This document shows positions 2,741 through 60,722 of a DNA stretch of 64,000 bases, one piece after another. The stretch lies in assembly GCA_964016885.1 (NCBI GenBank), contig OZ024747.1:25172001-25236000 (forward strand), written 5' to 3'. The notes under the pieces are model-generated. The model ran no database searches. It was not told where the DNA came from and saw only the letters and a program-made list of their open reading frames with translations. This DNA is from Eledone cirrhosa (Eukaryota). Both the position numbers and the translations under genes were made by a program. Each line of letters begins with the position of its first letter. The stretch's first letter is position 1.

Positions 2741-5655
2741 TCAAGATAATAATAATCGGCCAGTATCAGCCATAATAAAGAATATAAAACTCGACTTCGG
2801 TATTGAGTACTCATTCTCACACAGATATATATATATATGTAAGGATGAAGTTGGTTTTTGGCTTATCCGAGAGATGGAATAATGTAAAAGTCACCCTTCT
2901 CTCACTATACACGCACACACACATATATAAGAGAATACCTTTTCTCGGTTTCGGGCGTATATGTGTGTATTGGGCAAGTTATTCTACGAAGTTAGTTAAC
3001 CAGTTCATTTCTTTTGTGTTTGGAGATGACCTTATATAATCCACACCAGCAAATGTTGGGGCGTAATAGAGATGAATGACTTTCATCTGTCTCTCTCCTT
3101 TTTTTTTCTCTCAACAAATCTATATTATAACTGTACAGACTTTTTATCCACCTGTCACACACGAACGCTACAACCCTGTCAAAAAAACGTTCTAAAAGTT
3201 TTAGAATTCATGGAACACTAATATAAGACAGAAAAATAAGAGGTGATGGTGACAAATGTTCTGAATGCTTTCATTCATACCAGAACTCTCACACACACAC
3301 ACACAGCCATACATACGTATCTAGTCCACGAAAAGAAACTGAATATTATTATGGGTTACGTATTAGTACTAACCACAAAATGTAATGTCAATCGGTGTTG
3401 TATACTAATAGTTTAAGTGAAATTGTAAGACTCCAAAGAAACTAGTGATGGCCTTCTTACAGGCGATTTCCTATTGAAATGTAGTACTAAATAAACTTTT
3501 TCGTGTTAATAGCTTTTTGAAAGATTTCTTCTTTTTTTACTGGAGTAAAGAAAGATTTAAAAATTATTAAATAATAAACTAGAAGCGTTTTAAAAGCAAT
3601 TTCTTTACGTTGAGTGTACCAAAATATTTTTCTCCCGTTTTTACTTAATTCTTTGAAATCGTGTTATATAATTAACTAACGAAAAACACCAACACGCTAT
3701 AATTCAACCCACATAAACTAACTTAACTCAATACACATAAAAGAAATGTTATTGCGATCTCAATTCAACCAAAGCATTCACATGCTAGGTATCAGCGACA
3801 CTGGGAACGGTGAATATCTAGAGCCAGAAAGTACTTCACTCTCAAAAACTACTAACCCTTTTCAAAACTTAGGTAAGACCCATAATGGAGTGTTGCTTCA
3901 AAACCTGTGCTAGTGCTGTTGTTGCAACAATGAACTACTATCATTCACTAGTATTGATGTTATAAGTTTGATTTCATAGAGTATTAGTCTTCGCTATCTA
4001 TTGTAAACCTATAGCTGACATTGAATACATGTGACCTAGTGGCTAGGGTGTTGGACACTTGATCATAAGGTCATGGGTTTGATTCCTGGACTGTGCAACT
4101 CATTGTGTTTTTGAGCAAGATACTCAATACCTAAGAAACCTATGAGATGCAACCCTGTAGGAGGTCAGTCAAACCTAGAGTTGTGAAGCTGTAACAACAA
4201 GAACATGATAGAACTATCATTAAAGCACCTAAGACCCCCCCCCCCCTCCTATAAAATGTAACCTAATATGAGGCCAGCTAAACCTACATTGATGCAAGCT
4301 GTAAAACATCCATTGAGCTAAAGACAGACAACAGAGATAATATATATATATATACCATTTACACCACCAATCATAAACCACACCCAAAGATAAAACAAAT
4401 GTATCAGAAATACTTAAAACATCTCTCCATTTACTTATATACTTTTGATATATTTCACAAGAGTTTCTTTCTATTGTTTACATGTAAATTTTTCTTAGAG
4501 CCCTTTTTGTAGAATTGTTTGATAGAAATGTTTATATCATGCTGGTATGTGTTGAACAAGGTTTGGTTCGAGGCTTGATAGGTCAAAGAACTACACCTTG
4601 CTCATGTTCCATATTTTGGCACAGTCCACACTATAAATGTGCTTGGCATTAGGGAAGGGTGTCCAACTGTGGAAACCAAGCCAGAAACAGTTCTGTTTGA
4701 GCAAGACATGATAATATGATCTGAACTATCTCACAACGGGACAACTCATCTATCGTGGAAAATGGACGTTAAACCGTGATGATGATGGGGAGAGAGTGAG
4801 AGAGTTAATGACAGTGGAAGAATCCACTAATATTTTGGCAAGGTGCGTTAAGCTCAATTTATCGTTCATTTCTCTCTAGCTATGTGCCTGTTAAATATAC
4901 TATCATCATCATTATTTAATGTTTGCTTTTCCATGCTTGCATAAGTTGGACAGGTCTTTTTCTACACAGCATCCCAGCGTTCCTTCATCTCTTCCATGAG
5001 CTTCAGTGATTTGCAATCAGCTTTCACAAACTCTGCCCAAGTCTTCCTCTCTATATATGTCCATGTATGTGTAAGATGGTAAAGAGTTGGGTGTCCTTGA
5101 AATCTCTTTGTTTATGCTTCTGCTAGTTCATCCAAAACCATTGTGCATTTTGACAATGTTCACAATTCCCAACACTGATAGTTTCAGATTTAATATCATA
5201 AAGCAATTATTAATGTTATTTCTTTATTGTTCAAGTATTTTTCCTGGCAAGTTTCAGCATTTTGATGTGTGGGTTACCTTTGAGCAGACCAATTTCCGTA
5301 TGTCATAAGAATGATTTTGTTCCCATTTGTAGTTCACCTCCCAACACTGGTTTCTTTTAAGTATTTCAAGAAAAATGATAAAATGTGTTCAGTGATAGTT
5401 TCATTTCCATTTAATCCTGTGTTATTTAATATGCATGATTGAGCTATATGGTATTTGCACAGTTAAATTATGATGTATGCTATACATATTGAATGTATCT
5501 GTAGCACAGTGCATTAGACAACAGAATGCTATAAACATTTTGGAAACTTTTCAAATGAAACCGAATAGTGTTCTGTTAAACTGAATATGCTTCATTAAGA
5601 ACAATTCTGGTAGATCTGTAGCTCTTTTCAACTTGGGCAATTCCAGGTATTCTAC

Positions 5656-12025
<6,370 letters not shown>

Positions 12026-12026
12026 C

Positions 12027-12177
12027 TAGACGGTTGTCCCCCTTGCTTCTGTTGGACACCACCAGAGGGCATTAGCCCCAGTGTTTGCATAGCTACGACT
12101 TCCTAAAACCGAATTTCTTTAGAAGTACGAAATTTCTATATATATTGTATAAAGCTATGCTTGAAGTGAAATCTTAT
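12027..12177 (+). mobile_element. Partial inverted copy of the hammerhead-bearing 289-nt element, starting at the ribozyme cleavage site
   Basis: ta|gacggttgtcccc...ttcctaaaaccgaatttc is the reverse complement of 12270-12361 and continues into the reverse complement of 12500-12560. Confidence 0.8.
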
Positions 12178-12184
12178 TTCTCTT

Positions 12185-12269
<85 letters not shown>

Positions 12270-12591
12270 AGAAATTCGGTTTTAGGAAGTCGTAGCTATG
12301 CAAACACCGGGGCTAATGCCCTCTGGTGGTGTCCAGCAAAAGCAAGGGGGGCAACCGTCTATGCATTTCAGGCTTGACTGGCCTTCGTCAGGACGGTCCC
12401 TCCCACCGTTTGCTACTGCTGGACTTGAAAACAGTCGAGAATATATAGTTTTCTCGTCTGTGTAAATGAGGTGATTAATCTCATTTGCATATGAAGCTGC
12501 ATAAGATTTGCTTCAAGCATAGCTTTATACAATTTGTATAGAAATTTCGTATTTCTAAAAAAATACGGTTTTAGGAAGATGTAGCTATGCA
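12270..12591 (-). mobile_element. Retrozyme-like / Penelope pLTR-like element: 289-nt monomer with ~30-nt terminal redundancy
   Basis: cggttttaggaag..gtagctatgca occurs at both ends (gtagctatgc at 12292 and 12581, period 289). It contains one hammerhead and no ORF. Confidence 0.75.
12354..12397 (-). ncRNA. Minimal type-I hammerhead ribozyme (intact)
   Basis: Minus strand reads ACCGUC-CUGACGA-AGGC-CAGUCAA-GCCU-GAAA-UGCA-UA|GACGGU: perfect 6-bp stem I, 4-bp stem II, all core nucleotides, palindromic stem III (AUGCAU) and an AUA cleavage triplet. Confidence 0.9.
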
Positions 12592-50227: not shown

Positions 50228-50694
50228 GTGTATGTGTGTGTTTGTGTTTCCTGTCTGATGATCCTGCGAGTGAGTAACAACACTCACCACATAGCTATTT
50301 AATTGAATATTTAAACCCTACTTCAGTATGGAGTATTTTTTCTGTCAATAATACATGGATATGTGTGTGTGTGTGTGTGTATATATATATGCGTGTGTGT
50401 GTGAGAGTGTCAACAAGAAGAAAGTCCACTCTATATATAAACAGACCAAACTTATGATTCGTATACACGACCTTAGATTTCATGGGTTGACAAGTTTTCA
50501 TGATTGCAATCGCTTAGTGAGGTGCATATTTAGAAAATAGCTGATTTAGTGGAAAGTCTTGCGAAAAATAGAGTTTAACATTTTTAATAGGTCAAGTGGA
50601 GGTTGGTTAGTTGTTGTTGATTGTTAAAGCTCTTTCGTCACAAAAACAAGATGGTGTAAGACAGAACTAAGGAGAGACACAAAATAACACATTA

Positions 50695-50737
50695 GTCACT
50701 GAAGAGGTCACGGAACGTGTGACGAAAGAGCTTTGAC
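50695..50737 (+). ncRNA. Minimal type-I hammerhead-like motif with adjacent inverted duplication (50620-50642)
   Basis: GUCA-CUGAAGA-G-GUCAC-GGAACGU-GUGAC-GAAA-GAGC-UU|UGAC. One extra nucleotide before stem II and a CUU triplet. Confidence 0.65.
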
Positions 50738-51019
50738 AATAAATAAACAACCATCCGGTTATTAAACCAACCAACTGGAAATTTGTAATAAATTGAAGTG
50801 AAAACCAATAAGTGTGTGTGTTTTTATTGGCAACATGACCCTCGTAAAGTATAACAATATGTTTCAACACGTTTTCACATAAGAAATCTTGCAAAAGAAA
50901 TACAAAAACGAAGTACAAGTCACTTAAAAACGTCACAAAATATAAACCCAGAAATCTAGATGGTTGGTGAAAAACCCAGACTGAAGGAAATTAGCACCTT
51001 GGACAGCCCCGATTACTTA

Positions 51020-57243: not shown

Positions 57244-60200
57244 CTACAGGCTGATATAGAGAGAAGGCCCATTCACTCGGGCCCATTCTCGCTACTTTCA
57301 CCCACCTTTCATAAAACTTGCTGGGGTAGAGCACCTCTCTCTCCATTCTGATCCTTCTTCTAAAGTGGTGCTTGAAAAAAAAAGACCAGTTGTTGGCCGG
57401 AGAGATAGGTGTCTGACCTCAGCCCTTTCAACCTTGTCCACCATACAACTTCTTTCGCCATAGCTATCACACAAAGGAAAACCGCCTCTCCTTCGTTTTT
57501 GAAAGGGGGAGGCGGTTTGATCGTGACAATGTTCTCGGTGGTCAACCGGATTGGTCCCACCCGCGACAGTAGTCGTTCCACATAGCCCCACAGATCAGCA
57601 ACGCCCGGGCAGTGTACGAATGCGTGTGTGACGGTTTCCTCGTCACGCACGCATCTCGGACAGATCTTCTTCGAGGGGTCCCTACCCGGGCGCCCGTGTA
57701 TGTAGAGCTTGTCCCGAACGGGTAGAGTAGAGCTCCTCGGTAACATTGCCAAGCCAGGGACTTTTGGAAGTTGTCCATCGGTCCCGGGCCAAACGTCCTA
57801 CCGAACAGACTGGCCAGCTCATCTTCCTCCATGCCCAGAGCCTCTCCGAGAGCGTCGTCGCACTTACTGCGCACCAACCCTCTATAGAATGTTGAGGTTG
57901 AGTTTCCATTGATTGCCGGATCCGCTTGCCAGAGGGCCGTGAGCACCTGGGCACATTCAATGTGCCAGTCGCCCACTTTTCTCGGTCTTTGCTTGACCCA
58001 GGATTGCAGCTCGGTGAGTGAGACGAGTCTCGGAAAGGCTCGCCTCACAAACAGGGCCCACACCGGCTGACCGGTGAGGAATACCTGGAGGTGCCGTAGC
58101 CTTAATGCGTGTCTACGCATCGTCAGCCACGGCATCCCCAGCCCTCCGTTCGAAGGGTGTTGACAGCAGATGGATCTTCTCACCAAAGGAGCCCGCTTCT
58201 TCCAAAGAAATCGGAAGAGCGCGCGCTCCATTTTGGCGAGTGTTTTCTCTGGGCAAGGCACGTCGGTCAAGCGGTAATAGATGACGGACGCTATATAAGC
58301 GTTCGCCACCTCCGCTCGACCTTTCAGGGATAGTTTGCACTCGGCCCACTTCTGGGCGAGTGCAAACACCTTGCCCGTTACCTCGTCCCAGTTTTTCTCC
58401 ACCTGGAGGTCCGGTCCGAACCAGACCCCGAGCAGCTTCACCGGTCTCTCCGTCCAGCGTCCGACGATGCCGTCGGAGGGCATCGTTTTGCCCCTCCACG
58501 TCCCGAGTTGCAAACCGACGGACTTGTCTCGGTTCAGCTTGGCTCCTGTGAACCTTTCATATTCCTCCAGTAAGGTGCCGATCTGCCCAATTTCCGAGGC
58601 GCACGACACCATTACTGTCATGTCATCGGCGTAGGCCGACACCGCTTTCCGCAATCCCGGTTCCAAGGGGATGCCCTGCAACAGCTCCAGCTTCCGCAGT
58701 AGTGGCTCGAGAGCCAGCACATACAGGAGGCAGGAGAGAGGGAATCCCTGTCGGATGGATCGCGTGATGTGGAACGACTCCGAGAGGTAGCCGTTCACCT
58801 TGACCCTCGAGCAGGTGTTGCTGCTGTGCATTGCAGCAATCCAGCCCCTGAAAACGGGTCCGAAGCCTGCCGCCGCGAGCACCGCATCCAGGTACCGATG
58901 GTCAACCCTATCGAACGCCTTAGATTGATCTAAGTTGATCAGGGCCCCACCAAAGCCGAGTTCGTTCCCTACCGTCTCTACGATGTATCGCATGAGGTGG
59001 AGGTTGTCGTGTATGGACCTGGACGGGATTGCGCATGTCTGCGCTTCTCCCACCAGGTTACCGACGACAAGCGCCAACCTCTCTGCTAACACCTTGGCCA
59101 AAATCTTTAACTCTGTGTTTAGCAGAGTTATGGGCCTGAAGTTATCTATGTCATCCCCCTTATTCTCGTCCTTCCTCACCAGCGTGACTACGCTCTTGGT
59201 CACAGAACTGGGAATTCTCCCGTTCTGTTGCCAGTTGCAGTAGACCGCCTCGAGGAGACCGGAAAACAAGCCCGGCATCGCTACATAAAGTTCGTATGGT
59301 AGACCATCGAGACCCGGAGATTTGCGTTTGCCGCATTGGCTCAGCGCTTCCCCTATTTCAGCGGCTGAAATGGGTCTCTCGCAGGACTTCGCCTCCCCGT
59401 CCGAGAGCCGCGCCAGACCGTCGAGGTATGGACCGAAATCCATGGCCCCACCCGGCCCGCCGCCCCTCCCGAACAGTTGTGCAAAGCGCCGTTGAAAGGC
59501 CGCGCTCATCCGCTCAGGTTCAAGGATCACGCGTCCATCCTGGTCCCTCAAAGACCGAATCGTGGACTTGTTTCCACTTTTTGCCTCGGGCCCAGCTAAT
59601 AGCTTTGGCTCCCACGTTACCCAGAGCAGGTATTTTACTCCTGACAACGCAGCCCTCGTGCTTCGCATCAAAGAACTGGTCTAGGGCCGTTCTTGACGCC
59701 AGCACGCCGGCCACGTTGCCACTCCTAATCGCCTTTTCTACTCTATTTGTTAATTCCCTTTCAGTTCTATTCCTATCTGATGCTAATTCCCGACTAAAAC
59801 CTATCGATTCTATTCTAATTTCTCTCTTGAGAGAGCCCCACCACCTGCTGTTGACAATTGCCCCCGTCAAACGCTGCTTAACTAGTGTGCTAATCCGCTT
59901 ACTGTAAGCTTTGTTTGTCGGTAAAGACAAGTTTAGCTTCCAGTAACCGGGTCCCTGTCTATGAGTTCTATCAAGGTTGACCACTCCGGTCACCAACTTG
60001 TGATCCGAATAGTCAACCATGAACATTCGTGGACAGCTCAATATGTCCCTATCCTTATTTCTAACTAGGAACCTATCTATGTACGACCTAGATGTTCCGC
60101 TGCGATTAGTCCACGTCCACAGTGGCACAGTCGGAAAATCTAGTCGATATCTATCGGCCAGATCAAATCGGCCGATTAATCGTTTGAGGCTGTTACATCC

Positions 60201-60680
60201 CCTTCTATCGGGACATGCCCCTACATAGTCCCAACGTGCATCCAGGATACCATTCCAGTCCCCCTCTAAAAGCAAGGAGCGAGACGTTCCCAGGAAATTC
60301 TCCAGGCGTCGGAAGAAGTCCGGTTGTGGTGTCCCAGATGGGGCATACGCTGCCACCAGCCTGAAAGCTCCACCTTCACCACTGCCGACGTCTAAAACCA
60401 CCAGTCGACCCTCCGGGTCCAGGTGTACCTTCTGTGTGGCAAGACCCAGGTATTTTCGCAGCAGAACGACAACCCCACCCTCACCCCTCGGCTGACAGAG
60501 AGATGCGTAGATCTCAAAGTCATCGAAGATGGGGGCTAGTTGGCGCTCGCTGCTGATCCTGGACTCGCAAATAACCATTACATCCACTCTGTGCGACCTG
60601 AGGTCATTTAAGAGTTTGCCCTGTTTCCAGGACATCCCCAGGTCGCGTGCATTCACACATCCAACTCTTATATTGGCCAT
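57244..60680 (-). pseudogene. Tx1 ORF2: AP endonuclease + reverse transcriptase + zinc finger, frameshifted
   Basis: APE motifs NARDL, GDWN, SYIDRF and SDH; RT motifs KSPGLDG, FRPITLLN, DQSKAFD, IRQGFPLS and YADD; CPRC..ETVTHAFVHC. Frameshifts near 59580, 57730 (5-bp ctcta duplication) and 57380. Confidence 0.92.
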
Positions 60681-60722
60681 GTTGGTACTGAAGAGTTAAA
60701 AAGGAAAAGGAAAGGAAATTAC

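Follow-up and report, generated by a model that had tools for sequence, protein, structure and literature searches.

A 64,000-nt stretch of the Eledone cirrhosa genome (contig OZ024747.1, positions 25,172,001 to 25,236,000; hereafter the window) contains two inverted copies of a short element around a (TA)n spacer, one of which carries a hammerhead motif while the other begins almost exactly where that ribozyme is predicted to cut. The locus raises the question of whether such copies are reverse-transcribed from RNA that the ribozyme has already processed, as the initial annotation had concluded, or whether they are produced in another way. The reading that we favor, with a probability of roughly 0.8, is that the window holds a decayed copy pair of a dispersed retrozyme of 321–322 nt, mobilized in trans by a Penelope-like reverse transcriptase (RT)/GIY-YIG endonuclease as the presumed driver.

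The hammerhead and the two arms of the window locus

A type I hammerhead motif with all core bases intact is located on the minus strand at 12354..12397, with the predicted cut at 12360/12359. Read from 12397 to 12354, it comprises helix I (6 bp; strands ACCGUC/GACGGU), CUGACGA, helix II (4 bp, with a 7-nt loop), GAAA, the palindromic UGCA, UA, and again helix I. A strict hammerhead descriptor matched the window only here and none of 150 dinucleotide-matched simulated windows, which agrees with the annotation of an intact motif at these positions; an Rfam scan did not report it, and its output consisted of TA-driven microRNA noise only. The motif had also been described as minimal. According to the definitions given in PMC4209133, minimal pLTR hammerheads have a helix II of 7–8 bp, a helix I of 4–5 bp, and an extra base before helix II, whereas canonical metazoan type I hammerheads have a helix I of 6 bp, a helix II of 4 bp, and a helix III of 1–2 bp with a palindromic loop. 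With a 6-bp helix I and a 4-bp helix II, the window motif belongs to the canonical form and resembles axolotl HHR_Amex1 as described in PMC7229834; it is predicted to cut efficiently only as a dimer. In the predicted fold, a long extension of helix I (12329..12427, minus strand) forms a rod with the ribozyme at its tip, and the whole right arm folds with z = −7.3 relative to shuffles, while covariation among 43 aligned copies lent no support to the predicted rod or helix I extension. Since a single hammerhead is present, the window locus cannot itself release a monomer.

The right arm (12270..12591, minus strand) spans 1.1 units, is 5′-truncated at unit position +59, ends at a non-canonical 3′ position (+91), and carries a private 31-nt deletion. 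Its 5′ redundant repeat (12561..12591, minus strand) is the remnant of a preceding unit; aligned over 33 columns, it and the 3′ repeat show 4 differences. The terminal redundancy covers 31–33 nt, with 90% identity over 31 nt and a spacing of 289. The annotated 289-nt, terminally redundant unit therefore stands as to redundancy and spacing but not as to unit length, which is 321–322 nt in the family: the shorter spacing is due to the deletion private to this arm, in which 31 nt were lost between two CTTAT microhomologies. The letters missing at 12505 are present as loose ends in other copies in three public sequencing runs. Nor is the unit permuted relative to the cleavage site, as had been proposed; the arrangement is a 5′-truncated partial tandem.

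With positions counted from the cut site, the left arm (12027..12181, plus strand) begins at −2 and runs to about +154, ending at the long (class B) 3′ end of the family. As annotated, the inverted copy starts at 12027 and reads through the presumed permutation junction, 12027-12118 matching 12270-12361 at 96% identity and the continuation past the redundancy junction matching the sequence of 12511-12591 at 91%. At its 5′ junction, three nucleotides (TAG) are shared with the terminal CTAG of the adjoining TA array, so that the start is defined only to within a few nucleotides. Both 3′ ends face the (TA)n spacer (12191..12269, no strand), and the left arm is flanked by its target, a 6.4-kb TA-rich array (5659..12026, no strand), whereas a gap of 200 N lies 275 nt from the right arm on the opposite side. 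The array has CTAG at both edges (5650-5660 and 12015-12029) in inverted arrangement, along with a strong plus-strand G-skew. No further element sequence was found beyond its far side, and the possibility that the array splits one long left arm was rejected on this ground. The element stretch contains no long open reading frame (ORF), and no match to RT plus GIY-YIG was found in the window. Two long open frames elsewhere in the window (57545-60695, minus strand; 391 and 712 codons) resemble, by eye, a LINE endonuclease and RT.

A dispersed retrozyme family

In the 3.0-Gb assembly searched, the family unit has a GC content of 0.41–0.47, and a first look returned about 2,900 candidates genome-wide. 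Exact matches numbered 1,037 for a 23-mer just past the cut and 808 for the ribozyme core, which is kept in 147 of 217 sampled ribozyme spans; three sequencing runs (one sample, contigs only) also confirmed the family. Two main subfamilies are visible, within which copies differ by 6–7%, indicating that the burst was not recent. Copies fold better than their shuffles (z = −4.9 and −7.3; 0/100 shuffles), and a two-sided change was seen at one of 39 predicted pairs in the 43 aligned copies, which is uninformative on covariation.

Arms longer than one unit account for 96 of the 263 sampled and arms longer than two units for 2; twelve cover two ribozyme positions, with both cores intact in two. 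A candidate source locus is an array of approximately 10 head-to-tail units (L292:1131-4435; G000:C2:83920630-83923934) that ends at the short 3′ end (A, see below), in which all 10 units covering the relevant column carry one variant of 4% frequency and a later higher-order duplication is visible. At G000:C1:143348607-143796123, seven identical ribozyme-core matches lie about 60 kb apart, suggesting a large segmental tandem duplication with one copy. The unit is short, multicopy, and non-coding, with one intact type I hammerhead, a GC content below 50%, and neither LTR nor ORF; head-to-tail tandems with at least two hammerheads occur in the family, although not at the window locus. The family is thus a non-LTR retrozyme, probably a non-autonomous Penelope-like element, with predicted self-cleavage and putative transcripts and circles.

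Copy starts relative to the cleavage site

If copies were reverse-transcribed from ribozyme-cleaved linear monomers, the left-arm start would represent the 5′ end of a cleaved RNA, and indeed this arm begins at −2 relative to the predicted cut, as do four other loci in similar fashion. Among the 1,037 exact matches, 19 lacked a ribozyme directly upstream by pattern, but 14 of these retained the ribozyme upstream and were only disrupted by a point change or small lesion, leaving five true 5′ ends, the window included, against about nine expected under random truncation. The expected value is approximate: it rests on anchored extension and assumes a detection factor of 0.7. Owing to the self-similarity of the rod, anchored extension carries some arms too far near −65; most counts were taken from BLAST arm tables. 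When the region from −17 to 0 was scanned with another pattern, 86 matches were obtained, without a peak at 0; by eye, at most 9–10 starts fall in the four positions at the cut (−3..0) and 44 in the 14 positions upstream (−17..−4), the rest being internal lesions. In a genome-order sample of 90 loci (the first 30 returned plus 60 regions covering the following places of 100 listed), the cut site is crossed by 134 of 155 arms; of the others, two have their start no more than 4 nt away and 19 begin downstream.

The small number of true cut-site starts and the frequent crossing of the site together imply that the usual template is not cleaved linear RNA. The cleaved-monomer origin is largely refuted for the family and highly improbable overall, although it could hold for the window left arm alone, whose start near the cut site is likely an ordinary 5′ truncation that fell there by chance. 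The inference of reverse transcription from ribozyme-processed RNA thus loses its basis: with respect to the cut site, the positions of copy 5′ ends (to which this analysis applies) are random. A consistent result has been reported in PMC11167929, where ribozyme mutants of a Penelope-like element insert normally and cleavage is unneeded for insertion; the retrozyme family accords with it in that its usual template is something other than a cleaved linear monomer.

Paired 3′ ends and the (TA)n target

The main arm table comprises 263 arms from 161 loci, pooled from several searches, some of which were biased to long copies. While 5′ ends are flat across the unit, 3′ ends concentrate at two sites past the cut, termed A (about +105–125, core 110–118) and B (about +148–170, core 154–165), at which 123 of the 155 arms in the genome-order sample end. 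Of 206 ends of these two classes, 159 are joined to (TA)n and 13 to another microsatellite. In the genome-order sample, arm lengths are approximately uniform up to about 440 nt in both end classes, and longer arms are rare.

Head-to-head pairs make up the majority of insertions: adjacent arms form 86 head-to-head junctions versus six tail-to-tail pairs across the 161 loci, and the head-to-head junctions mostly overlap by 2–5 nt. One A end was combined with one B end in 43 of the 50 pairs with both ends scorable (p=1e-7 against independence), a count that leaves out the 36 of 86 head-to-head pairs with at least one non-canonical end; in the genome-order sample, the combination was found in 32 of 34 pairs. 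Classical L1-type twin priming, in which one arm starts where the other ends on the RNA, was rejected as a misfit to the junction list, judged by eye. In Penelope-like elements, a tail sits on one of the inverted pLTRs (as described in PMC3846280 and PMC8557442), and insertion involves two internal RT start sites, with both strands cut and extended (as described in PMC11167929). The pairing of one short and one long end in the retrozyme family is this Penelope "tail" signature, and it is accompanied by the other features of Penelope cargo, namely 5′ truncation, partial tandems, and adjacent inverted copies. The idea of a retrozyme-like family inserted in (TA)n is accordingly upheld and extended, in that the family is Penelope-linked and genome-wide, but the cut-site start does not serve as proof of a processed RNA template. 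In both subfamilies, the short 3′ end is preceded by an 8-nt palindrome (unit +102..+109), whose sequence differs between them, and a palindrome of this length holds the corresponding position in an autonomous Penelope-like family (L094); it is a possible recognition feature, on anecdotal evidence.

Penelope-like elements of the genome

Many elements with an RT, a C-terminal GIY-YIG domain, and a Neptune-type cysteine linker are present in this genome. L094 (G000:C6:60243000-60246000 and many loci), which served as a positive control for the insertion anatomy, is a young autonomous Penelope-like family with its own, different hammerhead, recognized in a looser scan. All 40 scored copies are identical over 271 nt, the tandem period is about 4.2 kb, and the family has likely been active recently. 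Its 3′ ends lie at about +127 and +175–187, in (TA)n, and the inverted partner of a long arm was short in 4/4 scorable cases; the query itself selected for long arms, a further partner was left unscored, and one was judged short by eye.

Comparison of the retrozyme unit with 50 GIY-YIG loci (of 10,595 candidates) by BLAST and nhmmer yielded AT-rich noise only (best E 0.015), and strict hammerhead scans of GIY-YIG loci missed the motifs there. The initial annotation had considered that the unit might abut a Penelope RT/GIY-YIG ORF elsewhere; no such neighbor was found among the 161 family loci, at none of which (0/161) does the 5′ end run into a shared Penelope ORF, while scattered Penelope fragments lie near eight. 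The 5′ flanks of 69 single-arm loci contain no common upstream sequence, and the unit is joined to itself rather than to an RT/GIY-YIG ORF. Given the lack of a sequence-sharing autonomous element among the 50 loci and of a shared ORF, we infer the Penelope driver from insertion anatomy only.

Two further hammerhead-like motifs were observed in the window. One (50693-50740, plus strand) is of the minimal pLTR type, with a long helix II and GAAA-GAGC-UU, and its presence in L070 and L106 as well indicates that it probably belongs to another Penelope-linked family. The other (48512-48445, minus strand) is a candidate with CUGAAGA, a 6-bp helix II, GAAA-UAUAUA-UA, and a helix I of 4–5 bp.

A proposed model of insertion and its template

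According to the model proposed here, a Penelope-like enzyme would cut both strands within (TA)n, and cDNA synthesis would be primed from two fixed internal sites, A (110–118 nt past the ribozyme) and B (154–165 nt past it), one for each DNA end. From there, synthesis would pass back over the ribozyme, still uncleaved, on a template longer than one unit (a tandem transcript or a circle) until a random stop, after which the two cDNAs would be joined head-to-head via microhomology of 2–5 nt, or a single cDNA would be attached to the flanking DNA. Cutting by the ribozyme would require a dimer, with monomer excision predicted only from the few dimer or multimer loci, and the window left arm would be an ordinary B-ended, 5′-truncated arm. 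The Penelope driver, the priming by a dimer at the two DNA ends, the activity of the ribozyme, any circle, and the origin of the window pair are the components that we infer. Against the model, the sequence at the start sites of the retrozyme family is TA-like and merges into the target without a visible break, whereas initiation without homology is described for the element in PMC11167929. A stricter form, in which a Penelope enzyme dimer obligatorily pairs the inner RT start with one cut end and the outer start with the opposite end, both on a single retrozyme RNA that may be a circle of 322 nt, is tentative, and we lean against it.

As to the template, the dominant form may be a circular RNA of 322 nt, on which the same Penelope-like enzyme would carry out rolling-circle reverse transcription; we put its likelihood somewhat short of even. 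Such a circle would fit the 96 of 263 arms that exceed one unit, the two passes of an arm, which nearly always belong to the same subfamily, and the ~10-unit array, with its A end and the 4% variant common to all 10 units covering the column; circles have also been shown for other metazoan retrozymes (PMC7229834). Yet tandem passes share only 3/214 rare variants (1.4%) versus 0.6% between loci (p=0.15), whereas head-to-head arms share 14/309 (4.5%, p=1e-8), although the difference between the two kinds of pair reaches only p=0.08. The repeats of the window right arm, with 4/33 differing columns, and the scarcity of arms above two units (2/263) point in the same direction. The sharing of rare variants somewhat favors templates made by tandem read-through, or else conversion acting on the inverted arms.

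Origin of the tail-to-tail pair in the window

The tail-to-tail layout of the window is found at six of the 161 loci. The left arm and the 3′ pass of the right arm have in common three minor variants with family frequencies of 7%, 4%, and 1%; at the columns that it covers, the 5′ repeat of the right arm has none of them. Among 40 scored of 1,443 candidates, the left arm finds its best match in the right arm. At L205, another tail-to-tail locus, the arms share 7/9 rare variants, suggesting that duplication or conversion took place across the TA spacer once the element had inserted; a non-canonical 3′ end, like that of the window right arm, is also seen in the duplicated arms of L205 and L233. 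For the window, the most likely source of the partner arm is a later event across the TA spacer, either fold-back duplication or conversion. A fold-back origin requires later loss of the 5′ part of the left arm, and this part was not found beyond the TA array.

Two separate insertions from one source locus into one large TA array, with no later duplication, would explain why each 3′ end faces (TA)n and why the arms are asymmetric; the 6.4-kb array offers a large target, and the minor variants in common fit a single source. The right-arm 3′ end at +91 is non-canonical, though, as in the duplicated arms just mentioned, and two insertions from one source within 80 nt are improbable among thousands of copies, so that we consider a double insertion unlikely. 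An assembly artefact might be suspected from the position of the inversion, between the TA array and the gap, but the arms differ from each other at 4/92 and 5/60 positions, the left arm holds sequence absent from the 3′ pass of the right arm, and similar layouts occur at other loci, making this explanation very unlikely. In the three sequencing runs (one sample, contigs only), no contigs bridged the window locus, which is uninformative on the inversion. Later duplication or conversion across the spacer remains the preferred origin of the pair.

Relation to known retrozymes and Penelope-like elements

Non-LTR retrozymes and their link to Penelope-like elements are already published, as the accounts in PMC7229834 and bioRxiv 10.64898/2026.07.22.740005 make clear. 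The literature searched yielded neither a description of this family nor a tally of A/B pairing for any retrozyme; the family may already be catalogued as a repeat in Repbase or Dfam, which lay outside the search scope.

As described in PMC7229834, metazoan non-LTR retrozymes (coral, mussel, and axolotl, as well as newt/axolotl satellite 2) likewise have a non-coding unit of 150–450 bp with a GC content below 50% and one canonical type I hammerhead per unit, with a 1-bp helix III and a palindromic tetraloop. They are also highly self-paired (a prediction in the present family), range from monomers to multimers, and co-occur with Penelope-like elements. Compared by description with that source, the present family differs in consisting mostly of dispersed arms of 0.3–1.5 units and head-to-head pairs rather than long arrays, and fixed paired 3′ ends and (TA)n targeting are documented for it.

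With GIY-YIG Penelope-like elements, as portrayed in PMC3846280, PMC8557442, and PMC11167929, the family shares 5′ truncation, partial tandems, an adjacent inverted copy, ribozyme read-through, two 3′ ends past the hammerhead with the longer at one end only, and a microsatellite target. Unlike those elements, the present unit has no ORF, its tail measures about 47 nt versus their 30–40, its hammerhead is canonical rather than minimal, and it shows no homology to the autonomous families sampled. The bioRxiv study reaches the same overall conclusion in treating retrozymes as non-autonomous Penelope-like derivatives, and the two-complete-hammerhead dimers found here correspond to its definition of "active". 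Its evidence, as far as presented, consists of co-occurrence and pLTR homology in vertebrates, whereas ours is insertion anatomy, with pLTR homology not found among the 50 GIY-YIG loci.

Implications

The family bears on the movement of animal retrozymes, for which PMC7229834 names Penelope as a candidate, and on the role of the hammerhead in Penelope biology. In this genome, hundreds of small insertions carry the Penelope tail signature, with a strong one-short/one-long rule, and the family offers a compact test system rather than a new kind of element. If the obligatory dimer reading were true, it would amount to direct anatomical proof, the first on a population scale, of animal retrozymes being carried by the Penelope machinery, together with a 165-nt minimal cis-element for testing.
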